Origin: Deltaproteobacteria bacterium
GTDB lineage: Bacteria > Bdellovibrionota_C > UBA2361 > SZUA-149 > JADYYL01
Direction of reading: 5' to 3'
DNA length: 29,901 nt
Assembly: GCA_020853655.1 (NCBI GenBank)
Contig: JADYYL010000268.1
Coordinates: forward strand, 1 to 29,901
This document shows positions 257 through 25,201 of this stretch, piece after piece; position 1 is the first letter of the stretch, and each line of letters opens with the position of its first letter. The notes under the pieces are model-generated. The model saw only the letters and a program-made list of their open reading frames with translations. It was not told the DNA's origin and did no database searches. The position numbers and the translations under genes are program-made.

Positions 257-1561
257 ATGCTGCTCCGAAAAGCCCCCACGTTCGGCCTCGTTACACTACC
301 AATGCTCTTGTGCTTCCCCTCGTTGAGCTTTGCGGCTCCCAAACCTCCGCGCGCGATTTGTTATAACAATTCGACCGGTGCGATCGCTCTCCGGACGCGA
401 TGCCGCGCTGGCGAGACGAAGTTTCTTACCCGCGCAGAACTCGTGGGTGCGCAGGGAGCCACTGGAGCGCAGGGTCCTGCCGGAGAAACTGGAGCCGTGG
501 GTCCAACTGGCCCAACTGGTGCGACCGGCCCAACTGGTGCGACCGGTGCGACCGGTGCGACCGGTGCGACCGGTGCGACCGGCGCGACCGGCGCGACCGG
601 TGCGACTGGCGCGACTGGCGCTACCGGCCCAACTGGGTCCGATGGAACTTTGCGAGCCTATGGTGACGGATCAGATGGCGATCAGGTGTTCAGCGCAACC
701 ACCACATTAGATCCCGTCAGGCAGTACAACAACATCACGATCGACAATGGGACAACTCTCAATGTTCCCAGTGGTGCCACAATCCGTTGCACCGGGACCT
801 TGACTAACAACGGTACTATTTCGGTTGCGGCATTTGGCGGCGGCGGTGGTTACGGCGCCACGAATGCAGATACTTTTCTCATTCCAGTTGACGTTGCTTC
901 TGCCGGTCTCGGTTCCTATCCCGCCCAAAATGGTACCTATGGAACTTCGGCAGGGACCGTCTTCGGAGGAGCGAGCGGACCGGCTATGGATCCCTCGATT
1001 GCAGCGGCGCAGTTTCGTCCAACTTCTGCGGCTGGTGGCGCCGGTGGAGGACGTGTTTCGGCGTTTGGTGGGAGTGGTGGAGGCTCGCTGCGAATTATGT
1101 GCGCAGGTGGAGTGAGCAACGGTGGCACGGGACTTATTCGGGCGAATGGGGCGACGGGAAGTACGGGAACTGGGGGAGGCGCAGGAGGTCTCATCGTCAT
1201 CGGATCGCAAATCTCAGTTACGAATGCGGGCACGATCTCTGCTGTGGGCGCGGCTGGTGGCGCGGTTACTGTGACCTCTGGTGGCGGTGGTGGCGGTGGT
1301 GGCGGAATCGTGCACCTTATTGCTCCTACCGTGAGCAATACGGGAACCATCAACGTTTCTGGTGGAAACGGTGTTTCCGCGGCCCTCGCGGGAACTGTAA
1401 CGTCCTCGCCGCGCAGTGGAGGAGGAGGCGGTGGTGGGCTCGGAGGAGGGGGTGGGCCGGGTGCGAGCGTCTCCACCGACGGAAGTACCAGTGCGTCGAG
1501 TAGCGGATCTGCAGGCTTGACGATTACCTCCAACGTCGATCCAACTGCGCTCGGGCTATAG
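257..1561 (+). CDS. Secreted collagen-like protein with glycine-rich C-terminal head (434 aa), paralog 1
   Basis: Signal-peptide-like N-terminus ending [10 protein letters not shown]; small two-Cys domain; about 22 contiguous Gly-X-Y triplets (mostly GAT/GPT); C-terminal domain with repeated GGxGGG runs separated by TIxxxG strands; collinear with 23942-25201, which supports the ATG at 257. Confidence 0.85.
536..625 (+). repeat. 9-bp tandem repeat (GGTGCGACC)n encoding (Gly-Ala-Thr)10
   Basis: Five perfect GGTGCGACC copies at 536-580, then five variant copies. Confidence 0.9.
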
Positions 1562-12630: not shown

Positions 12631-12803
12631 CCCCCGTCTTTCAATCACTTCCTTAATCTCTGATCTCAGTCGGTCTGTTGCGGTCCAGTCAGACTCTCTT
12701 CGAAACAATCGATCTCTCACACTTCGCGCACACTCCTATCGCGGTCGCCTCCCTTGAGATTATTTCACGCGAAGCCACTCGCTGAGTGATATACGAGATC
12801 CAC

Positions 12804-14042
12804 ATGACACCTCAGACTCCCCCAGCGCCGACGCTTCCTCTCAGCACGCACTTCGCCGTCCCATGCTACGATGGCCCGTGCTTCGCGAGACTTCCCGATC
12901 TTGCGCGAGCAGTGTTTACCGGAAGCCCGGCTCCTTGGGCGATGCGACACGAACTGTCTCAGATCGATACTCTGGTGTTTCTCTTTGTTGACGGTTTTGG
13001 CCGCGACCATTTCGAGCGTTATCAAACATCTCTTTCCACGCAGGGCCTGTTCTCCGATCCAGAGGTATTCATCGGAAGCTCTCAGTTCCCGTCCACCACT
13101 GCTGCGCATGTTACGACTCTGGGTTCTGGCCTCTCCGTCGGCGAGCACGGCATATACGAGTGGTATTACTACGAGCCACTTGTCGGAGAGATCGTCCTTC
13201 CACTGGTTTACTCGCTTCAGGAGACACGTACCCGAGATTCGCTCCGCTCGATCGCCTCGCCCGAGAGCGTCTTTCCGTTTCGCACTCTGTTCGAAGAGCT
13301 CGATGAGCACGGTGTTGAGAGCATGCTGTTGCAGCCGTCTAACATCTCAGGTTCGGCATATGGCAGCGCCGTACAAAGGGGCGCGATGCTGGGCGGGTTT
13401 TCCTCCCTAAAACGCGCGGGAGAACTGCTCTGCGACGCGGTCGATAGGTGCGACGGGAAACGGCGCTTCGTGACCCTTTACTATGACGAGATCGATAGCG
13501 CGGGCCACAAGTTCGGAGTTCACTCGCCCGAGCAGGACGCCAAAGTTCGCGACTTCTTCACCATGCTCGGCGGCGCGGTATCCGGCATGCAGCGGAAACG
13601 GACACTGTTCGTTCTCTTCGCAGATCATGGAATGACGCACCTGAGTCCTGAGACCACGCGATACGTCGACCGCGAGCTCCCGCAGTTCGAGCACATGCTG
13701 GAGCGGAGCAAGAGTGGACGGGTCCTCGCTCCCTGTGGATCCTCGCGCGATCTCTTTCTCCATGTACAACCCGATCGCGCGGAAGAGGCCGTCGCTCTGT
13801 TGCGACGACAATTCTCAGAGATCGCGGTGACGGCGCTGACGTCAGATTTGATGAACGCGGGGTATTTTGGACCGAATGTGAGTTCACGACTTCGTGATCG
13901 AATCGGAAATGTTGTCGTACTCCCCTTCGAAGGGCATGGAGTGTTCTGGTATGGCGGCGGAGAGTTTCGGCAACACTTCCTGGGGAACCACGGAGGGCTC
14001 ACCCCGGCGGAACTGGAGATCCCGATCGTTCTGTTTTCATAG
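12804..14042 (+). CDS. Alkaline phosphatase superfamily, type I phosphodiesterase / nucleotide pyrophosphatase-like (alternative start GTG 12786)
   Basis: FVDGFG, FPSTTAA (Thr nucleophile), DEIDSAGH, ADHG, GNHGG: the full bimetal ligand set; no signal peptide. Confidence 0.85.
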   Translation: MTPQTPPAPTLPLSTHFAVPCYDGPCFARLPDLARAVFTGSPAPWAMRHELSQIDTLVFLFVDGFGRDHFERYQTSLSTQGLFSDPEVFIGSSQFPSTTAAHVTTLGSGLSVGEHGIYEWYYYEPLVGEIVLPLVYSLQETRTRDSLRSIASPESVFPFRTLFEELDEHGVESMLLQPSNISGSAYGSAVQRGAMLGGFSSLKRAGELLCDAVDRCDGKRRFVTLYYDEIDSAGHKFGVHSPEQDAKVRDFFTMLGGAVSGMQRKRTLFVLFADHGMTHLSPETTRYVDRELPQFEHMLERSKSGRVLAPCGSSRDLFLHVQPDRAEEAVALLRRQFSEIAVTALTSDLMNAGYFGPNVSSRLRDRIGNVVVLPFEGHGVFWYGGGEFRQHFLGNHGGLTPAELEIPIVLFS

Positions 14043-14249: not shown

Positions 14250-17200
14250 TTGAATCGATTTCTCCCACTGTTTCTGGCATCGTTGTTTGTCGTCGCATTT
14301 GCGACGGCGTCAACTGCGTTTGCTCAAGGGGAGACTGTCTACTTCGATAGCGCTCGGCAGGAGTCGCTCGCCGAATCTTCAGTCGGATCGGAGCCAGGTT
14401 CCTTCCTCTCTCCCTCGTCATCCGTTCCTTCGACGCCTCCAGCCGTCGCCATCGTTCGAGATTCTGGACGTTCGAACAACCGCGTCGACGTCGTGTTCGT
14501 CGGCGACGGATTCACGTCGTCGTCGATTCCCGGTTATGCCTCGCGCGTGACGGAACTCGAAAGCAGCATGTTCTCCGAAACACCGCTCGCTCAATACAAG
14601 AAGTACTTCAACGTGCACCGAGTGGACGTTCTTTCGTCACAGAGCGGCGTTGACCACGAGAGTGGCTACCCACAGTACCGCGATACCGCGATGGGGATGG
14701 AGTACTACTGTAACGACTCGCCGGATACGCTCTGCATCGATATCAGCCAGGCGTATGTCTATGCAGGCTATGCCCGCGACGTCGACCAGATCATCGCGCT
14801 GGCGAAGTCGACCCGTGGCGGTGGTGCGGCGTATCCCTTTAGCGATATCGCGCTCATGGGGTCTGACCACCTCGCGGCACCCCAGCACATCATGCACCTC
14901 TTCGGACACAGCTTCGGAAACCTCGCCGATGAGACCTCTGTCGGTGGATGGGAGGAGTTCACGGGATTCGAGCCGGCAGAGCCGAACGCCTCGATGTTGA
15001 CCTCTTCCGATCTCCAGTCACAGCGGGTGAAGTGGTATCGCTGGTTAGGAGTCACCGACGGAGCCCTCGGCGAGATCGGAACGCACGAAGGTGCGATGGG
15101 AAGTGCGCGGCGCATCTACCGCCCCACCGCGAACTCGAAGATGCGGGAGTTGAATCAGTCGTTTAACGCCCCGTCGATCGAATCGCTCATCATCGAGACC
15201 TACAAACTCGTCAGCCCGATCGATGACGCGACGCCAGCAAACGCTGTGTTGACTGGCCGCGAAACGCTCTCCGTCACCCCGCTCGAGCCAGTGGGGCATT
15301 CGCTCGACATCCAGTGGAAGATCGACGGAATCGCCGTTCCAGGGGCGACCGGACGAACGTTCCGCCCGAACGACTATCCGATCAGCGACGGCACGCATCA
15401 ATTCTCCGTCGTCGTCACGGACAACACCCCGATGGTCCGAGACGAAGTCGCACGCGGTCGCTACATGACGGCGACTCGTTCGTGGAGCATCCCGATCGAT
15501 CAGAATCCACCTACGATTCTCGTTCACCCGGAAAGTCAGACACGCTTCCGCGGCGGAGTCGGGTACTTCGTCGGGCAAGCAAGCGGCGAAGACCTTCGGT
15601 ATCAATGGTATCGCAACGGTGTCCTCATTCCTGGCGCGACGACTACGAGTTACACGACCCCAGGCGTAACGCTCGCCGACTCGGGCGCCCGCTTTCACTT
15701 CGTCGTCTCCAACGTCGCTGGCGCTGTGGCGAGCAACCCCGCGGTGCTCACGGTGGTGAATCGCGCGCCGGTCATCGGGACTCTCGGTGCCATGTCCTTG
15801 CTTCGACGAGAAGTGCGGCCGTTGGCTGTTCCGCTCAGTGATGCTGATGGCGATCCGCTCACGATGACCGCCGAGATCATCGAGCCGAATACTGGGGCAA
15901 CCGTAGCCGTGAGCGGGTCGACGGTGACGGTCACCGCGGGACCGACGTTCATCGGAACCTTTCAGGTGCAACTCTCCGTCTCGGATGGATTCGAGACCGT
16001 TACAAAGCTCTTGACTGTTCTCGTGTACAACGGGATGCCGACGCTCGAGCAGCTTCCGAACGTCAGGATGCCGTGGCGGAGCGAGGAACTGACCTTCATC
16101 CTCACGGCGAGCGATCCTGACAACGACCCGCTGACGTTCTCGGCGACCGGTATGCCGCCGACGGGAATCGCTTCGATCTCTCCGACGGGGAACATCCTCA
16201 GAATTCGGAAGGCCGCCGGGTTCCAAGGGCTACTCAATGTCACCTACTCCGTGAGCGATGGTGCCGTCTCGGTGACGAAGAACTTCGCGATCGAGATCGT
16301 GAACAACGCGCCGACGATCGCGGCGATTGAGGATCAATCGATCGCTTGGAATGAAGACTCGCGAACGATCGGGACTGGCGTCGCGGATGCTGACAACGAT
16401 CCGCTGACGCTGTCAGTGGTCGGAACGCCGTATACTGCGCCGCGCGACCTCGATCAGATCCATGATTTCTATTTCGGCCGGGGCACATGGAGCTACGATC
16501 TCTTTGGCCTGAAAGAGAAGCACTTCTCCGGCACGAAGAACCAACAAGGGCGTGAGTTCCGCTACTACATTCTACCGAACGGCGATCTCTATGAAGAGCG
16601 AGGCTCGGCAGCTTCCTCGATCAAGCTTGCCAGTCTTCCCACCGCGTTTCACGCTGATCCAGCGTTGCTATTTGATGCCGGAAACACGCCGATCCCACCG
16701 ATGCACTTCGAAGGCGCGAACCTGGTGATCGACCCGGAACCGAGCTTCCGAGGCGCGTTCGTCGCGACAGTCACAGTCTCTGATTCGCTTCTTACGGCGA
16801 CCGAAGCGTTCGTCGTCACCATGTATGACGCGAAGCCCTATTTGAAGAAGCTTCCGCCCTACCTGCGGATGCACTGGCGAACTGATGTCCTTCAAACACC
16901 GGCGATCGCGGTCGATCCCGATGGCGATCCGAACGGCGCCGTGTCGACGACCACTGCGTCGCTCTGGGATACGACTGATCTCTGGGACACGATTCACTCG
17001 CTCGAGCTGATTCCCAACGACAATCCATATGACGTTGGATTCCGTCGAAACGCGAGAGGGCTCGGGGAACGCTATCTTGCGCGACGGGCGATCTCGCCAA
17101 CTCCTCCGAACATCTATTACATCCTCCCGAATGGAGAGCTGTATCACTTTGGTGGCTCGCTCGAGTCGAGCACGCTCGTTACGAAAGTGCCGCCAGCATT

Positions 17201-20200
17201 CTTTGAGGACGTCGGATGTGAGGAACTCTACTATCGAAGCTCAGCGACCGACGCTGTGCGCGACCAAGACTGGAAGCCGAAGTTCATCTGGCCTGACGAC
17301 TGCAAGTACACGGCGCTCTCATTTCTTCCTCCGCCGGCGGCAGACCCTATTCTGGTCTCCGTTGCGAACGGCACACTGACGATCAATCCTGCGCACCGGT
17401 GGCTGGGACGTTCATTCATCGAAGTTCGTGCGTCGAGCGGGGGATACTCCGACACACAGGTCGTTGTCTTCGACGCGTTCAACAGTCGCCCACAGGTCGG
17501 CGATGCGGAGTATGCCGTGCGAAACGGTTTGCCGTCGCTGAAGTATCAGATCGTGGAGCACGATTCTGCGGACGAACCGCATCTCGTGCCGAGTATCGTT
17601 CCGGTGAATCTCCACGATCAAGATATGCGCTGGGGCCGGGAACATCAGATTCAAACGATTGAAGGGGATGACTACAACAAGCGCGGCTGGCGCGAGCGAT
17701 ACTTGACCGGCAAAGAGAACGGCGTTGATACGCTCTATTTTATCCTCCCGAACAACGAGCTCCATCGCTTCCAGACGACGATTGAAGACAGCCCGTTTGT
17801 CATGCCCGTTGCTGGTCATCACTATGATAGTCCGGCAGGGTGGGTATTCGGCGCCTCTGTCTATCAACCGACTCCTGTTCCGACCCGTCCGATCTGGGTG
17901 GAAGGCGACACGGTGTACTTCGGCGTCGGAACGACCCTCACCGAACTTTTCACCCAGTGGTCACTCCTCGTTGCTGACGGCAACGGCTACGGCGTGTCGA
18001 ATGACTTTCTCTCGAACTACAACAACGCGCCCGAGATTGAGCCGATCGATGAGCAGCGCATCCACTGGCGTGAATCAGACCGAACCGTGGCGCTTGAAGC
18101 AAGCGACCACAACGGCGACCCACTCACATTCAGCGCGAGCATCCTCAGCGATGTGACGGCGTTCAATCTCGACCATCAACTCGACTTCTTCATGCCGACG
18201 CAAGGCATTCGGTTCAACGTGGAGAATGCCAGTGAGAAGTATATCTCTGCGACGAAGCGTCAGACCGGAGGAAACTTCACCTATTTCATCCTCCCCTCGG
18301 GGCAGATCTGCGAGTTCGCGAACTCCGTGCAGACGAGCATGAACCGCTGTGTTGGCACGGTTGCTCGCGCTTATTACGACGACCCCACACTCTTATTTGA
18401 CATGCCGGAGCCGACGTTTGTCCCGGTCGATCTGAATATTGCCGGCACGACCCTGACGATCCATCAACGAGAAGAGGGATGGACGGGTCGGGTGCGGGCG
18501 CGAGTCTCTGTGTCGGATGGAGCGGCGTCGGCGTCGACTGATTTCGTGATCTCAATCTTTAACAACACGCCGGTGCTCGCGGCGATTGACGCTCAAGACA
18601 CGAGCTACCGGTCGATGAGCCTCAGCGTGCCGCTTGTTGGTAGCGATGTCGACCTGCTCGACCGCGCGCACCTCAAATACAAGGTCACGTTTGCCGGCGA
18701 CGAGCATCGAGCCCGTGAATACGATCAGACCTTTGACTTCCGCTCTCCCGACGCCCCGATCTTCAATCGTGACGGGTGGCACGAGAAGATCCTGCTCGGC
18801 CTGTGGAGCGGATCGTATACGGAATTCGCGCTTCTTCCGAATGGAGAGCTGTATCACTGGGAAGGCACGAAGTCGGCGAGCACCAAGATCGGTCGTCTTG
18901 ATGAGCGCTTCTATCGGAATCCCGCGCTGCTCATCAACGTTGTCGACCCGACGCCGGTTCTTCCTGATCTCGACATGACGCAAATCGAGATTGCCAATAA
19001 CGTCGTGACCTTTGTGTTCCCGCCGGACTATCGAGGCACCGCAGTCGCACACGTTGAACTGACTGATGGCAATCTCTACACCCGACGAGACATCACGATC
19101 ACGCGCCAGAATCACGCCCCGGTTCTTGGTCCTATTGCGGATCGAGCGATGCACTGGCGCGAGAATACAGCTTCATTCAACCCGGTCGTGTCGGACGTCG
19201 ACAACGAGCCGCTGACGATCACGGTGCGCCAAGAGAATCGCACGATCCCGTATCAGCTCGATCAGCTCTACGACTTCCGCATGCCCGATACAGGAATGTT
19301 GTTCAACCAGATGGGCATGCAAGAGAAGATCATCCAGGGGAAGACCGACCCGGCGACCGGACGGTTCTGGTATGCGATCTTCCCGAGTGGGCAGGTTCGA
19401 CAATACCAGAACAAGACCGTTCTTGGTCCGCTGTTCGGCACTGTCCCCACTCAGTATTATGACGACCCGTCATTGCTCGTCGACGTTCCCCCTCCGGGCA
19501 TCACGCTTGCGACCGTGACCGCAACCGGAACGAACTTCGTGATCGACCCGGTGAATGGCTGGACCGGCAAACTGCTCTTCACGGCTGAGCTCTCCGACGG
19601 CGAACTCTCTGTCTATCGAACCTTCAAAGTTGCCATCTACAACAACAAGCCGAATCTGCTTCCGGTGCAACCGACCTCCATGTCACGTCGCACGGACTCG
19701 ATCACGGTTGCACTTCCTGCGAGCGATGCCGACTCTCCCGATACGACTTATCTCGTGCGATCGGCTCGTCTCGGCGGTGCAGAGCATGCGGCTTACGAGC
19801 TCTGGCAGCGGTATCGCTTCTCGGCGCGAGTCGCGGGCCATGGCTACAACCTGCTCGGCTGGCGCGAAAAGAGTATCAACGGCGTTGATGCTGGAACGAG
19901 CAAGGAATACCTCATCCTGCCATCAGGCGAGATTCGCGAGCGACGTGGTGCGGTGGAAAACAGCCCGGTTGTTGGCCGAGTCGCGACCACATACTACGCT
20001 GACCCAAGCCTGCTCTTTGCTCCCGCCGTTCCATCGGCTGTTCCATCGGTCGCCCTGTCAGTGACGAACGGTGTTCTTACCGTGAATCCGGCGGCGAACT
20101 ACGAAGGCACATTCCCGATTCTTCTGCAGACGACGGATGGACACGAGTATGACAACGAGCCGTTGAGCATCACGGTTGGCAACTACCGGCCGGTGCTCGC

Positions 20201-23200
20201 CGTTCCGAGTGCTCAGTCGATGCACTGGCGAAACGGCAAAGCGGAGGTCACGCTGTCCGCAACGGATGCTGACTCCGATCCGCTCACCTTCAGCGCGGCG
20301 TTCAGCGGCGCAACTCTGCCGGTCACCTTCGCGATACAGGGGAACAAACTGACCATCACGGCGAAGGGCGATCCCGTCATTGGAACGGCAACCGTTCAGG
20401 TGTCCGTGAGCGACGGCTTTGTCTCTGATACCAAGACCTTCGCCTTGACGTTGACGAACACCGCTCCATCAATGCAATCGTTCACAAACGTTGAGCGCCC
20501 ACATCGCACCCGTGAGATACTGATCCCCGTCGTTGCGACCGACCCGAATGGAGATCCGCTCACGCTGAGCGCGACCGTCCTCGGCGCGAATGTCGGGGCG
20601 TCTTTTACCGGCACGACGCTCAAGTTAGCGATCCCAGAGTTCTATGCAGGCTCGTTTGCGGTCAACGTGTTCGCGACCGACCGCATCGTCTCTGTCTCGA
20701 AGAGTGTGACCGTATCAATTGGTAACCGCGCGCCGGTCCTCGCGCCGAGTGGGAATCTTCAGGTGCCGTGGAGAGAGAACTCCGCAAGCGTAGGGTTCAC
20801 GGTCAGTGACCCGGATGGCTCCGATCTTTTCCTTTCAACGCGTATTGTTGGTGGAGACATCGCTTCTTCATCCACAATCGTCGGGTCGCAAGTCATCGTC
20901 AGTCTCCCCAGCCATAATCTCGGAACGACGACAGTCGAAGTCAGTGCCTCAGACGGAGACCTCACCGCCCGGACGACGTTTACGGTGCAGGTCATCAACC
21001 ACGCACCAGTGCTTCGCGTCGATCCGCAGTTCATCGAGCTTGGGACGCGCGTGCACACCGTGAGTATCGCCGCGACCGATGAAGACAACGATCCATTAAG
21101 CTACGAAGCAGAGCTGATCGAAGAGCAGCGAATCGCCTATGAACTCGACCAGGTGCATAACTTCGAACTCCGCTTTGCCGACTACTTCTATGACCTGCTC
21201 GGCAACCAGGAGAAGTATATCCAAGGCACGAAGAACGAAGCCGAGGGACTGTACTGGTATGTGATCTATCCGAACGGTGACTTCTACGAATGGCGCGAGC
21301 GCTTGAGCGATAGCTTCTACTATGGACGGCTGCCGACCTCGTTCTACGAAGATCCAACGAAGCTCTTCGATGTCTCCGCTCCGGGAACGTGGGTCTCGCC
21401 CGGCTCGATCCAACTCGTCGGCTCGGATGTGACCATCAACCTCAATCCGAACTACGTCGGCCAGTTTATGATCCGCGCCAAAGCCTCGGATACCAAGGCG
21501 ACGACGACCTTTGATTTCATCGTTGAAGTCATCGATCCAAACGGCGGAGAGGACGACTCCGATGACGACGATGATTCCAGCTGCGAGCCGACGATCAAGT
21601 TGCATCACGGCGAACACAACGTCAGTTCGTGCAAGGTTGCCTTTACGGCAGAGGGACGCATTGGCGACTCGGCAACGGGGCCGGGACACAGAACCTTTGA
21701 GATGGATATCTCGCGCTCAACCGCGGGGCCGTTCAAGGACGGCGAGACGAAGAACTATGTCTGGGTGAGCGGCCGCAGCACACCGTTTAAGCTCGTTTAC
21801 AACGACGAAGCCGAGACCGCGGAGTTGACGATCGACGGGAACGTTGTGACTCATCGCTCCGTAAAGGAAGACGATTTCACCGACATGTTCATCCGCGCTC
21901 GGGCCGGTGACAGTGGCCATTCGATCAAGTTGTATGACCTTGTCTTGAACGGCGTGACCATCGGCGAAGGCGTTGAAGCTTCGCCGAACGCTGGTGGCGT
22001 TAACGTCCTGCAGATCACGGCGCCGGGAATCAATCGCGGCTTCACCCTCGAGGGGAATGTGAAGATGACCTTCACAGGAACCGCCGTGAAGAACTCCGAA
22101 CTCGCGTTCCAGATCTCAACCTCGAATGTCCATGACCATGAAGAGGAATGCGAAGACGACCACGGCGGCCGGAAGGTGACGATCTGCCACTGCCCACCCG
22201 GGAACTCCGATAACTGCCATACGATCTCGATCTCTCGGAGTGCGCTCGAAACGCACCTTCAGGAGCACGGCGACTTCATCGGCGAGTGCCCGGGCGATCC
22301 AGGAGATGATGTCATTGCTGCATGCGATGCAGGTCCAGTGCTGCAGTCGCCGGTCTTCGGAGTGTGGAACAGTGTGCTCAACATGCAGAACACGCTTGAA
22401 CTCGCGAATCGTGAGTCCACGGCAATGTCCGTGACGTTGACCCTCTACTCGATTCTCGGAGAGCAGGTTCACAGAGATACGTTGTCAGTGCCCGCACTTG
22501 GCCAGTTATCGGTAGGGTTCAATAATCTTCCTGGATTCGTGGAGAACTCGAACGGTGTCTTCAAACTTGAGTTCAGCGGGAAGCTCGATGGCCGAACGGT
22601 CTATCGTCGACCAGACGCAACTGGCGGATCAGAGTTCATGTTTATCCTCCCACTGACAGATGGGCTCTTCGGCGAGACCGCAGTTGGGTTCAATACGACT
22701 CAACCGTCGACCATCTCGTCCGAGAAGGCCAACGCTGTGATGAACTGGCTTTCGATCGCAAACCTCGATCGCGAAGTGAAGACGTTCCAGGTCGATACGT
22801 TCGATCAGAAGGGACGACTGTTGCTCCGCCGGAACGTGACCCTCGAGGGACTCACGCGGGCGACGATCGATGGTGGGCACGATCTCGCGGGTCGAAATAA
22901 ATCGGGCACGCATTTCATCACGCCGCTCGATCTCAATACCCACTATCTCGCAGAGCTGACCCGATTCGGCGGCGATGCGAAGGCAGGATTCACGCCGTCG
23001 ACTTATCGGTTCGCGTTCCCGGCTGTGGCACAACTGGTTCAAAGTGACCGCGGTTATGTCGGACTTCGCAATCGGGAAGGGGAGATGAGTTGGGTTGAGG
23101 TGGCAAATCGCAGCGGCGTCGCGGGACGCTACGCGATCAATCTGTTCAACTCGAAGGGGAAGCTTATCGAGTCGATCGATCAGAAGATTGCAGCAAACGG

Positions 23201-23696
23201 ATACGCGGTCGTCGATGCGAAGCGCTTCCTCAAGGTCGGCGAGCAAGGCTACGCACAGATCATTCCGTTCGCGCCCCGTTCCTATATCGCCCAGGGCATT
23301 ACGTATCACACGTCGCTGAAGACGAAGGGCAGCGTGACCGCGGCTCACAGTGCGGTGGCTCGAAGCGATTCCCAGTGTTTGCTGACGTCCGGTTTTAATC
23401 TCAGCGCGGGCGACAACTGGCTCCTCGTTGCCAATACTTCGAATGTGACGACAAACATTGCCGTCACAGCGAACACCGCTGGGCAAGCTTCCGAACGTAT
23501 CGTCTCACTGAAGGCGCGCTCATCAATTCTTCTCCCGTTGCACGACCAACGCCAGATGAGACTCGCTCCCGGAACGCAGGGCTTGCTCAACGTTCGCGCG
23601 GGGAATCGTGAAGCGAAGCTGTTCGGTGAGATCGTCCGGTCAAAGGTGCGGGATAAGAAATACGTAGACTTCTCAGCGGCGATTCCGCTGCGATAG
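14250..23696 (+). CDS. Giant secreted multidomain protein (3148 aa): M64-like pseudo-peptidase, 2 Ig-like domains, 13 cadherin-like repeats with 8 inserted modules, beta-sandwich, Cys/His module, 4x C-terminal repeat
   Basis: Signal peptide MNRFLPLFLASLFVVAFATASTAFA; M64 motifs VDVVFVGDGF, FNVHRV, HLFGHSFGNLADE, KWYRW, YRPTANSKM; repeated NxAP...D.DxDPLT...VSDG units; uninterrupted 9.4-kb ORF. Confidence 0.9.
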   Translation: MNRFLPLFLASLFVVAFATASTAFAQGETVYFDSARQESLAESSVGSEPGSFLSPSSSVPSTPPAVAIVRDSGRSNNRVDVVFVGDGFTSSSIPGYASRVTELESSMFSETPLAQYKKYFNVHRVDVLSSQSGVDHESGYPQYRDTAMGMEYYCNDSPDTLCIDISQAYVYAGYARDVDQIIALAKSTRGGGAAYPFSDIALMGSDHLAAPQHIMHLFGHSFGNLADETSVGGWEEFTGFEPAEPNASMLTSSDLQSQRVKWYRWLGVTDGALGEIGTHEGAMGSARRIYRPTANSKMRELNQSFNAPSIESLIIETYKLVSPIDDATPANAVLTGRETLSVTPLEPVGHSLDIQWKIDGIAVPGATGRTFRPNDYPISDGTHQFSVVVTDNTPMVRDEVARGRYMTATRSWSIPIDQNPPTILVHPESQTRFRGGVGYFVGQASGEDLRYQWYRNGVLIPGATTTSYTTPGVTLADSGARFHFVVSNVAGAVASNPAVLTVVNRAPVIGTLGAMSLLRREVRPLAVPLSDADGDPLTMTAEIIEPNTGATVAVSGSTVTVTAGPTFIGTFQVQLSVSDGFETVTKLLTVLVYNGMPTLEQLPNVRMPWRSEELTFILTASDPDNDPLTFSATGMPPTGIASISPTGNILRIRKAAGFQGLLNVTYSVSDGAVSVTKNFAIEIVNNAPTIAAIEDQSIAWNEDSRTIGTGVADADNDPLTLSVVGTPYTAPRDLDQIHDFYFGRGTWSYDLFGLKEKHFSGTKNQQGREFRYYILPNGDLYEERGSAASSIKLASLPTAFHADPALLFDAGNTPIPPMHFEGANLVIDPEPSFRGAFVATVTVSDSLLTATEAFVVTMYDAKPYLKKLPPYLRMHWRTDVLQTPAIAVDPDGDPNGAVSTTTASLWDTTDLWDTIHSLELIPNDNPYDVGFRRNARGLGERYLARRAISPTPPNIYYILPNGELYHFGGSLESSTLVTKVPPAFFEDVGCEELYYRSSATDAVRDQDWKPKFIWPDDCKYTALSFLPPPAADPILVSVANGTLTINPAHRWLGRSFIEVRASSGGYSDTQVVVFDAFNSRPQVGDAEYAVRNGLPSLKYQIVEHDSADEPHLVPSIVPVNLHDQDMRWGREHQIQTIEGDDYNKRGWRERYLTGKENGVDTLYFILPNNELHRFQTTIEDSPFVMPVAGHHYDSPAGWVFGASVYQPTPVPTRPIWVEGDTVYFGVGTTLTELFTQWSLLVADGNGYGVSNDFLSNYNNAPEIEPIDEQRIHWRESDRTVALEASDHNGDPLTFSASILSDVTAFNLDHQLDFFMPTQGIRFNVENASEKYISATKRQTGGNFTYFILPSGQICEFANSVQTSMNRCVGTVARAYYDDPTLLFDMPEPTFVPVDLNIAGTTLTIHQREEGWTGRVRARVSVSDGAASASTDFVISIFNNTPVLAAIDAQDTSYRSMSLSVPLVGSDVDLLDRAHLKYKVTFAGDEHRAREYDQTFDFRSPDAPIFNRDGWHEKILLGLWSGSYTEFALLPNGELYHWEGTKSASTKIGRLDERFYRNPALLINVVDPTPVLPDLDMTQIEIANNVVTFVFPPDYRGTAVAHVELTDGNLYTRRDITITRQNHAPVLGPIADRAMHWRENTASFNPVVSDVDNEPLTITVRQENRTIPYQLDQLYDFRMPDTGMLFNQMGMQEKIIQGKTDPATGRFWYAIFPSGQVRQYQNKTVLGPLFGTVPTQYYDDPSLLVDVPPPGITLATVTATGTNFVIDPVNGWTGKLLFTAELSDGELSVYRTFKVAIYNNKPNLLPVQPTSMSRRTDSITVALPASDADSPDTTYLVRSARLGGAEHAAYELWQRYRFSARVAGHGYNLLGWREKSINGVDAGTSKEYLILPSGEIRERRGAVENSPVVGRVATTYYADPSLLFAPAVPSAVPSVALSVTNGVLTVNPAANYEGTFPILLQTTDGHEYDNEPLSITVGNYRPVLAVPSAQSMHWRNGKAEVTLSATDADSDPLTFSAAFSGATLPVTFAIQGNKLTITAKGDPVIGTATVQVSVSDGFVSDTKTFALTLTNTAPSMQSFTNVERPHRTREILIPVVATDPNGDPLTLSATVLGANVGASFTGTTLKLAIPEFYAGSFAVNVFATDRIVSVSKSVTVSIGNRAPVLAPSGNLQVPWRENSASVGFTVSDPDGSDLFLSTRIVGGDIASSSTIVGSQVIVSLPSHNLGTTTVEVSASDGDLTARTTFTVQVINHAPVLRVDPQFIELGTRVHTVSIAATDEDNDPLSYEAELIEEQRIAYELDQVHNFELRFADYFYDLLGNQEKYIQGTKNEAEGLYWYVIYPNGDFYEWRERLSDSFYYGRLPTSFYEDPTKLFDVSAPGTWVSPGSIQLVGSDVTINLNPNYVGQFMIRAKASDTKATTTFDFIVEVIDPNGGEDDSDDDDDSSCEPTIKLHHGEHNVSSCKVAFTAEGRIGDSATGPGHRTFEMDISRSTAGPFKDGETKNYVWVSGRSTPFKLVYNDEAETAELTIDGNVVTHRSVKEDDFTDMFIRARAGDSGHSIKLYDLVLNGVTIGEGVEASPNAGGVNVLQITAPGINRGFTLEGNVKMTFTGTAVKNSELAFQISTSNVHDHEEECEDDHGGRKVTICHCPPGNSDNCHTISISRSALETHLQEHGDFIGECPGDPGDDVIAACDAGPVLQSPVFGVWNSVLNMQNTLELANRESTAMSVTLTLYSILGEQVHRDTLSVPALGQLSVGFNNLPGFVENSNGVFKLEFSGKLDGRTVYRRPDATGGSEFMFILPLTDGLFGETAVGFNTTQPSTISSEKANAVMNWLSIANLDREVKTFQVDTFDQKGRLLLRRNVTLEGLTRATIDGGHDLAGRNKSGTHFITPLDLNTHYLAELTRFGGDAKAGFTPSTYRFAFPAVAQLVQSDRGYVGLRNREGEMSWVEVANRSGVAGRYAINLFNSKGKLIESIDQKIAANGYAVVDAKRFLKVGEQGYAQIIPFAPRSYIAQGITYHTSLKTKGSVTAAHSAVARSDSQCLLTSGFNLSAGDNWLLVANTSNVTTNIAVTANTAGQASERIVSLKARSSILLPLHDQRQMRLAPGTQGLLNVRAGNREAKLFGEIVRSKVRDKKYVDFSAAIPLR

Positions 23697-23941: not shown

Positions 23942-25201
23942 ATGGATCTTCGCAGAGCGCTCGCCGCCGGATTGATATCGCTTCCAGTTATTTCCCTTTC
24001 ACCTTCGTCCAGCGTTGCAGCGCCAAAGCCACCTCGAGCGATCTGCGCGAACAACACCACAGGGGTGCTTGCGCTACGTACTCGATGTCGCGCGGGTGAG
24101 GCAAAACTGAACACCCGCGCGGAGCTCATCGGAGCGCAGGGACCAGCGGGGGCTCAGGGGGCGACCGGGGAGGCCGGTGCGGTAGGCGCGACGGGTGCAA
24201 CGGGAGCGACGGGCGCAACAGGCGCGACTGGAGCAACCGGTGCGACAGGGGGTGTCGGGGCCACTGGAGCAGCCGGCGCCGATGGAGCCATTCGAATCTA
24301 TGGAGATGGAACGGACGGTGACGTCGTTTTCAATCTCTCGACGACCTATGAACCGACGAGTCAGTACAACAACATCACCGTCGATGTTGGCCAGACGCTG
24401 ACGATACCCACCGGGGCAACGATTCGGTGCGCGGGCACTCTGACAAACAATGGAACGATTCTCGTGGCAGCGTACGGTGGTGGGGGTAGCATCGGCGCGC
24501 CTTCTGCTTCCGTTACTGTTCCCTCTGTTGATATTCCGAACGCCGGACTCAGCGCGTACACGGCGCAGAATGGTTCGTATGGAACCTCAGCTGGTACGCT
24601 GATCGGAGGTGTCGGCGGGCCGTCGATGAATAGCTCCGTTGCGATTGCTCTGTTGCAGCCGTATCCCGCGGCGGGTGGGGCGGGTGGTGGAACGCAAGGT
24701 CAATATGGAGGAAGCGGCGGCGGCTCTCTTCGCATCCTTTGCGCTGGTGCCGTACAGAATTCGGTCACGGGGATCATTCGGGCGAACGGCGGTTCCGGAT
24801 CGAGCGGAACTGGAGGGGGCGCGGGTGGGTTGATCATCATTGGTTCGCAGACCTCAATTACGCAAGCGGGCACGATCAATGCGAACGGTGGAAATGGCGG
24901 TGCGGCCACAGCATCTTCAGGAGGTGGTGGAGGGGGTGGTGGCGGTATCGTTCAGTTGATCGCACCGGTGGTGAATAGTACCGGAACTGTGAACGTTACG
25001 CGCGGGAACGGTGCTTCCGCGGTAGGCGCGGGCACTGTGTCCAGTTCACCGCGAAGCTCAGGTGCTGGCGGTGGTGCACTCGGTGGTGGCGGTGGTGCCG
25101 GAGGGAGCGTCCTCGCGGACGGCAGCACCGGTCTTCCCTCTGATGGTAGCGATGGATATTCGATCGTTTCGCTCAAAGATCCTACCTCGCTTGGGCTATA
25201 G
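23942..25201 (+). CDS. Secreted collagen-like protein with glycine-rich head (419 aa), paralog 2
   Basis: [17 protein letters not shown]...[10 protein letters not shown]...TRAEL nearly identical to 257-1561; about 17 Gly-X-Y triplets; same Gly-rich head. Confidence 0.85.

Follow-up and report, generated by a model that had tools for sequence, protein, structure and literature searches.

The DNA examined in this study is contig JADYYL010000268.1 of a Deltaproteobacteria metagenome-assembled genome (MAG), a stretch of 29,901 nucleotides that is referred to below as the window. Its forward strand encodes P0001, a protein with a stalk of 13 cadherin-like (Big_9) repeats, eight of which (repeats 3–9 and 13) contain a nested module, whereas five are plain. 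The host repeats are of a known type (Big_9/cadherin-like), but the module is new to the libraries searched and has no solved relative. Modeling places it inside the cadherin-like β-sandwich, and the anatomy of a rod carrying nested knobs that emerges for P0001 is, in our judgment, highly probable. In the reading that we prefer, to which we assign a probability of about 0.5, P0001 is an exported rod whose nested knobs act as binding modules.

Module Copies and Their Position in the Cadherin-like Repeat

An earlier sequence-only reading of this DNA proposed that eight copies of an ~80-residue module are plugged into the same loop of cadherin-like repeats. A profile hidden Markov model built from the eight segments and run with the HMMER filters off locates exactly eight module domains in P0001, each of 80–90 residues, and no others, all within a few codons of the positions first proposed. 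On the forward strand, copies 1 to 7 are at 16437..16682 (residues 730–811; independent E-value (i-E) 1.5e-35, also found in the genome search), 16971..17243 (residues 908–998; 2e-30), 17616..17858 (residues 1123–1203; 2.2e-28), 18159..18407 (residues 1304–1386; 2e-36), 18711..18944 (residues 1488–1565; 4.3e-32), 19245..19490 (residues 1666–1747; 1.3e-37), and 19788..20027 (residues 1847–1926; 3.3e-34), and copy 8 is at 21132..21377 (residues 2295–2376; 9.6e-38). Copy 3 matches profile positions 16–82 only, the part corresponding to the N-terminal helix being degenerate. Profiles built from seven copies recover the omitted one in every case, with E-values of 9.9e-9 to 3.9e-21 (scaled to 1e6 database sequences), far outside what chance would give. 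Identity to copy 1 is 23–41% over about 82 aligned columns. The consensus given by the sequence-only reading is essentially right, and only the Glu of its "EK" and the Pro of its "ILP" are invariant in all eight copies. A six-frame search of the whole assembly (a MAG of 2.9 Mb in 498 contigs, 72% complete) returned these eight sites and nothing else.

In every composite repeat, the module comes after the strand that carries a DxDxDPLT motif (degenerate in repeats 4, 5, 7, and 9) and precedes the half of the repeat that reads GxxLTIxP...VSDG, whereas the plain repeats (1, 2, and 10–12) have a loop of 5–8 residues at the same site; the sequence confirms the placement first proposed. Seven consecutive composite units, each made up of a host repeat and its module, form repeats 3–9 (16305..20189, + strand; residues 686–1980) with a period of 173–216 residues, as defined by the module spacing and by a consensus of 144 units. 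They are preceded by the plain repeats 1 and 2 (15759..16304, +; residues 504–685), which match Pfam Big_9, Cadherin_5, and Cadherin_4, and followed by the plain repeats 10–12 (20190..21005, +; residues 1981–2252), which were delimited by reading the sequence and have no module match. Repeat 13 (21006..21539, +; about residues 2253–2430) is again composite, with a DEDNDPLSY motif at residue 2277 and a module match. A regular-expression search for the calcium-type motif DxDxD(G/P) before the third strand finds it in repeats 1, 2, 3, 4, 6, 8, 10, 11, and 13, and it is degenerate in repeats 5, 7, 9, and 12; a role in calcium binding is putative.

The 144 composite units were aligned from P0001 and more than 100 other proteins, and their consensus retains an N-terminal immunoglobulin (Ig)-like half, the module, and a C-terminal Ig-like half. 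With this alignment, AlphaFold2 (AF2) modeled the composite unit of repeat 8 (19107..19676, +; residues 1620–1809) with a mean predicted local distance difference test score (pLDDT) of 94.7 and a predicted template modeling score (pTM) of 0.83. The model consists of three strands, the module (a helix, a four-stranded meander, and two short helices), and then four strands. Foldseek comparison of this model with the PDB gave only two-domain Ig tandems at a template modeling (TM) score of about 0.2. Because the nested topology confuses Foldseek, the composite was also searched with VIA-align (VIA) against 48,161 PDB representatives. Single contiguous cadherin and Ig domains align over model residues 1..180, matching about 90 residues with Z-scores of 10–10.8 and root mean square deviations of 2.1–2.3 Å; they include SraP (4m00, residues 662–751), protocadherin-15 (6bwn, residues 589–689), and the EC domains of cadherin-23. 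A 110-residue cadherin-like protein of the AlphaFold database (AFDB) likewise aligns across model residues 1–190. Single cadherin domains thus span both halves of the repeat. According to the model, the halves complete one another as a single cadherin-like sandwich, and the chain departs into the module after strand 3 and rejoins the sandwich at strand 4. The module therefore lies within the Ig-like domain, as proposed earlier, rather than between domains. The pTM of 0.83 further suggests that the composite is rigid, with a fixed orientation of the knob on its host domain.

Fold and Family of the Module

The module was also modeled alone (residues 1663–1750, with an alignment of 130 modules), giving a pLDDT of 94.8 and a pTM of 0.84. 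Counted within this segment, the model has a helix at 3–12, strands at 31–38, 42–48, 53–59, and 62–69, and helices at 73–76 and 78–81. The layout of the knob is an N-terminal helix, an N..G..EK[WY] loop, a four-stranded antiparallel meander built around a W-Y-x-I-L-P-N-G-x-L-Y-x-W hairpin, and two short C-terminal helices. Conservation was counted over 682 modules, with numbering from residue 1663. The most frequent residues are Asn24 (87%), Gly27 (93%), Glu30 (94%), Lys31 (80%), Trp/Tyr32 (93%), Trp45 (68%), Tyr/Phe46 (91%), Pro50 (85%), Asn/Asp51 (73%), Gly52 (95%), Trp57 (72%), Asp/Asn77 (83%), Pro78 (79%), and Leu81 (90%). The polar trio Asn24, Glu30, and Lys31 is located in the loop before strand 1, which on these frequencies is the best candidate for a functional (contact or metal) site.

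No named family covers the module, in agreement with the sequence-only reading, which knew of none. Pfam searches with the 8 and with the 130 modules gave nothing beyond subthreshold hairpin likenesses, and NCBIfam, searched with P0001 and the 130 modules, contains no family for it. The best PDB match by Foldseek has an E-value of 2.3, with TM scores of at most 0.33, and the best VIA match among the PDB representatives has a Z-score of 3.9; the top VIA matches, NFACT-N/FbpA-type domains, were rejected as too weak. A feature-based search of the protein Atlas gave no usable match. Lectins and carbohydrate-binding modules (CBMs) have no sequence or fold match to the module in Pfam or NCBIfam (130 modules), PDB Foldseek, or VIA. 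The Pfam entries DUF6593, Choline_bind_1, Kelch, and RCC1 were rejected as the family of the module, their scores being sums over repetition of one hairpin with no individually significant stretch. The choline-binding repeat PF01473 matches 11 of the 130 modules over one hairpin each, with a best E-value of 0.0069, and does not reach the cut-off. In AFDB and the ESM Atlas, the same module occurs in unnamed multidomain proteins only (TM scores of 0.67–0.83, 26–30% identity), which are labeled as S8 or S1 peptidases, cadherin-domain proteins, or type II secretion proteins. A more distant structural match is to residues 147–250 of AFDB entry A0A518DQ68, which carries an MMPL family label (TM 0.70, 16% identity), and a knob of this kind may also be inserted in a periplasmic loop of an MMPL membrane transporter.

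The module belongs to a large unnamed family. A filter-free profile search of 1.84 billion cluster representatives found the module in 1,072 proteins at E ≤ 1e-3, of which 631 are at ≤ 1e-10 and 139 at ≤ 1e-30, usually in two to nine copies. Among the best 150 of the 1,072 proteins, the distance between modules is bimodal. In the nested mode (roughly 290 pairs), modules are separated by about 160–200 residues with a period of about 177, and in the tandem mode (roughly 155 pairs) by about 70–100 residues with a period of about 82 and no Ig host. Direct head-to-tail arrays are found in P0042, P0034, P0036, P0056, and P0011, and several tandem-array proteins terminate exactly at the end of a module. 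These endings and the stand-alone model indicate that the module is an autonomous small α/β domain with an unmatched predicted fold. The two spacing modes also show that the ~177-residue composite (half Ig, module, half Ig), which recurs in more than 100 other proteins, and not the bare module, is the unit amplified in the P0001 gene. The copies do occupy the same loop, as first proposed, but they are not eight independent insertions, the composite itself being the repeat unit.

Usually, as judged from family matches, these proteins have a secreted peptidase head, behind which lies the stalk that carries the modules. Of 111 N-terminal regions, 32 contain Peptidase_S8, 6 contain M64, and 6 contain M10, and further heads among them are trypsin-like, C25, M23, CAP, PPC, and SdrD_B; reprolysin and calpain heads also occur in module proteins. 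Scanning GTDB species genomes with a narrow pattern gave 26 module loci, most of them in Planctomycetota (Pirellulaceae, Gemmataceae, Planctomycetaceae, Isosphaeraceae, Thermoguttaceae, and Blastopirellula marina DSM 3645), and the remainder in MAGs labeled Bdellovibrionota or Myxococcota. These loci and the homologues agree with the mention in the sequence-only reading of similar segments in large planctomycete proteins. The module is present in 16 of 124 species genomes of the GTDB phylum of the window, all within the order of the window, and at least 4 of 301 genomes in an even sample of Planctomycetota match at E ≤ 1e-5. The family is therefore widespread but patchy. Five planctomycete-type members (P0042, P0034, P0023, P0036, and P0011) have an N-terminal L-E-x-L-E-x-R-x-L-L-S/T motif and not a classical signal peptide, whereas P0001 has a classical hydrophobic leader.

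Head, C-terminal Region, and Gene Neighborhood of P0001

The open reading frame (14250..23696, +; TTG start), taken from the open reading frame list and its translation, has 3,148 codons and no internal stop. The first 25 residues include a hydrophobic stretch that ends in AFA-Q and looks like a Sec signal peptide, suggesting export through Sec. An M64-like peptidase head follows at residues 69–269 (14454..15056, +; Pfam PF09471, Peptidase_M64, E 9.2e-25). Its zinc motif reads HLFGH (residues 216–220, window 14895–14909) where the family has HExxH, and the head thus lacks the catalytic Glu and appears to be catalytically dead. The same Glu is absent from the M64 heads of two module-bearing homologues (HQLGH in P0028 and HLLGH in P0031), and its loss therefore looks like an ancient, shared trait rather than a recent defect. 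Pfam searches of the whole protein matched PF17963 (E 3.5e-21), PF17892 (E 1.4e-10), and PF17803 (E 1e-6), and the NCBIfam tandem-95 profile NF012211 scored 53 bits, under its cut-off of 90.

After copy 2 the chain continues with about 35 additional residues (residues 999–1034, window 17244–17350) that are unique to repeat 4. One Cys lies just inside the end of the module (VGCEE) and another in the extension (DDCKY), and a disulfide-stapled extra loop is possible. An Asp/Ser-rich acidic linker, GGEDDSDDDDDSS (about residues 2431–2446, window 21540–21590), lies between the last composite repeat and the C-terminal region, where a choice-of-anchor W domain occupies residues 2460–2622 (21627..22115, +; NCBIfam NF041928, E 4.5e-37). 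Directly after this domain is a Cys/His-rich acidic segment, HDHEEECEDDHGG...CHCPPGNSDNCH...GECPG (about residues 2628–2695, window about 22130–22330), which has no family match and could be a metal-binding or disulfide-knotted linker. The gene directly upstream of the giant gene (12786–14042) encodes a Phosphodiest (NPP-type) protein, and just downstream is a 419-codon open reading frame (23942–25201) with no Pfam match. A collagen-repeat protein (Pfam Collagen) is encoded at window positions 257–1561.

Possible Roles of the Knobs and Comparison with Known Systems

In the preferred reading, P0001 would be a Sec-exported giant surface or secreted protein in which the chain leaves each composite β-sandwich after the third strand, folds a knob of about 85 residues, and returns to complete the sandwich. 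Amplification of the composite as a unit would then produce a rod with a row of sideways-projecting knobs. If the knobs are binding modules, their multivalency would fix the protein on an insoluble polymeric target, for which a prey or particle surface, the cell wall, and a matrix glycan or protein are candidates, and the invariant Glu with the neighboring conserved Asn/Lys loop would be the candidate contact or metal site. In the relatives, the frequent placement of the module behind secreted peptidases suggests that the knobs would hold the protease head on its target. That the knobs bind at all is a proposal to which we give slightly less than even odds. It is based on the precedent of RTX adhesins, in which the ligand is bound by the domains budding from split Ig-like domains (PMC12077191), on the position of the module behind secreted peptidases, and on the conserved polar loop. 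The suggestion in the sequence-only reading that the knobs are lectin-like is, as a proposal of binding, plausible.

Several observations weigh against this interpretation. No similarity to a lectin, a CBM, or any other binding family was found in the Pfam, NCBIfam, PDB, and fold searches. Most of the conserved aromatic residues belong to strands and helices and, in so small a domain, may form its core rather than a binding platform. In RTX adhesins, one to three binding heads of different kinds are placed near the tip, whereas P0001 has one small module eight times along the rod, an arrangement that fits a structural role equally well. Because the M64-like head seems dead, substrate targeting for a protease cannot fully explain P0001.

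An alternative that we consider unlikely is that the knobs bind nothing external and instead make the stalk thicker or stiffer, act as spacers, or protect it against the cell's own and foreign proteases, the conserved residues serving to maintain the fold and its packing on the host Ig domain. The repetition of the module 7 + 1 times along the rod, and not at the tip, the fixed orientation suggested by the pTM of the composite, the largely hydrophobic and aromatic character of the conserved residues in secondary structure elements, and the failure of the Pfam and fold searches to detect a binding family are all consistent with such a role. The module is also found without an Ig host, in tandem arrays and as a terminal domain, however, which would be odd for a brace of an Ig rod, and the near-invariance of its polar loop (Glu30, Asn24, and Lys31) exceeds the conservation usual in spacers. 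A more improbable role is self-association, in which knobs would link stalks or neighboring units through homotypic or heterotypic contacts to give a surface lattice, a fiber, or cadherin-like cell-cell adhesion. The cadherin-like hosts with their DxDxD calcium-type motifs and the many regularly spaced copies would suit this role, but the occurrence of a single module gene in the 72%-complete genome argues against it.

It is very doubtful that the module is a relic of a propeller, with its four-stranded meander representing one PQQ-like blade and several modules closing into a propeller-like ring. Among PDB sequences the module profiles match only the designed propellers Bagel, Cake, and Scone, over a W-Y-x-I-x-P-N-G-x-L hairpin, many of the weak Foldseek and Atlas neighbors are propellers, and P0001 has eight copies. 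The matches to the designed proteins amount to only 7–9 bits per blade (i-E 9–39), however, and their small E-values are sums over identical blades; they were rejected as evidence of membership and are retained as a lead about the origin of the module. Structural similarity to propellers does not exceed TM scores of 0.33 in the PDB Foldseek search and is under 0.5 in the Atlas, and the module alone is confidently predicted as a closed, helix-capped domain (pLDDT as given above). In addition, the copy numbers of the relatives range from 2 to 9, and three plain repeats separate copy 8 from the other copies.

Extending the binding reading to the whole family, we tentatively propose that the modules form a new family of polymer-binding domains, also new in fold, that bind a glycan, peptidoglycan, or a matrix protein (possibly with metal assistance through the Glu/Asn loop) and thereby fix the secreted peptidases and pseudo-peptidase adhesins of predatory or particle-attached bacteria (Bdellovibrionota-like, Myxococcota, and Planctomycetota) to prey or particles. 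If polymer binding is correct, the module would be a new targeting module for extracellular enzymes. The domain occurs in more than a thousand protein clusters, typically on secreted proteases, and has neither a name nor a solved structure; its definition would improve the annotation of giant proteins now described as "hypothetical" or "cadherin domain" in Planctomycetota, Bdellovibrionota-like bacteria, and Myxococcota. Small (about 185 residues) and confidently modeled, the composite unit lends itself to expression, crystallography, and binding screens.

The host domains of P0001 match the profiles of Big_9/Cadherin_5 repeats (PF17963, PF17892, and NCBIfam tandem-95), and their halves superpose on the solved cadherin-like domains described above. 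The standard repeats are of about 90–95 residues, and their DxDxDG strand leads into a short loop, whereas in P0001 this loop holds an 85-residue domain and the profiles cover half-domains only. The module keeps the same company as PPC, PKD, and the P-domain, small extracellular domains that follow S8, M10, and other secreted peptidases, singly or in several copies; PPC is itself found together with the module. These domains are serial β-sandwiches, however, whereas the module is a nested α/β knob for which no sequence or fold relation to them was found. PQQ-like propeller blades and choline-binding (CW_binding_1) hairpins share with the module the pattern aromatic-aromatic-x-hydrophobic-x-P-[ND]-G-x-L-aromatic. 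The likeness per unit is below significance and the fold TM score under 0.5. Blades assemble into a closed propeller and the 20-residue hairpins into a superhelix, whereas the module consists of one helix-capped unit.

The closest known design is that of the RTX adhesins of the LapA/FrhA/MpIBP/AhLap type. As in P0001, an Ig-like stalk domain is interrupted, and a globular domain projects to the side before the chain resumes and completes the sandwich, all within a giant extracellular repeat protein with calcium-type motifs. P0001 is nevertheless not an RTX adhesin, because neither RTX nonapeptide repeats nor a type I secretion signal was detected with Pfam and NCBIfam (no RTX/HemolysinCabind or retention-module match at E ≤ 0.1) and a Sec-like N terminus is apparent instead. 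The split occurs after the third strand in P0001 but after the first strand in the AhLap example (PMC12077191), and the budding domain has an undescribed predicted fold rather than that of a CBM, PA14, vWFA, or peptide-binding domain. A further difference from the RTX adhesins is that in P0001 the amplified repeat unit is the composite. If the knobs bind a polymer, split-domain display, seen in RTX adhesins for a few domains at the tip, would extend along an entire repeated stalk, and the nesting of a knob in every stalk repeat would create a "bottle-brush" of binding sites, a mode of display not described for the RTX adhesins.

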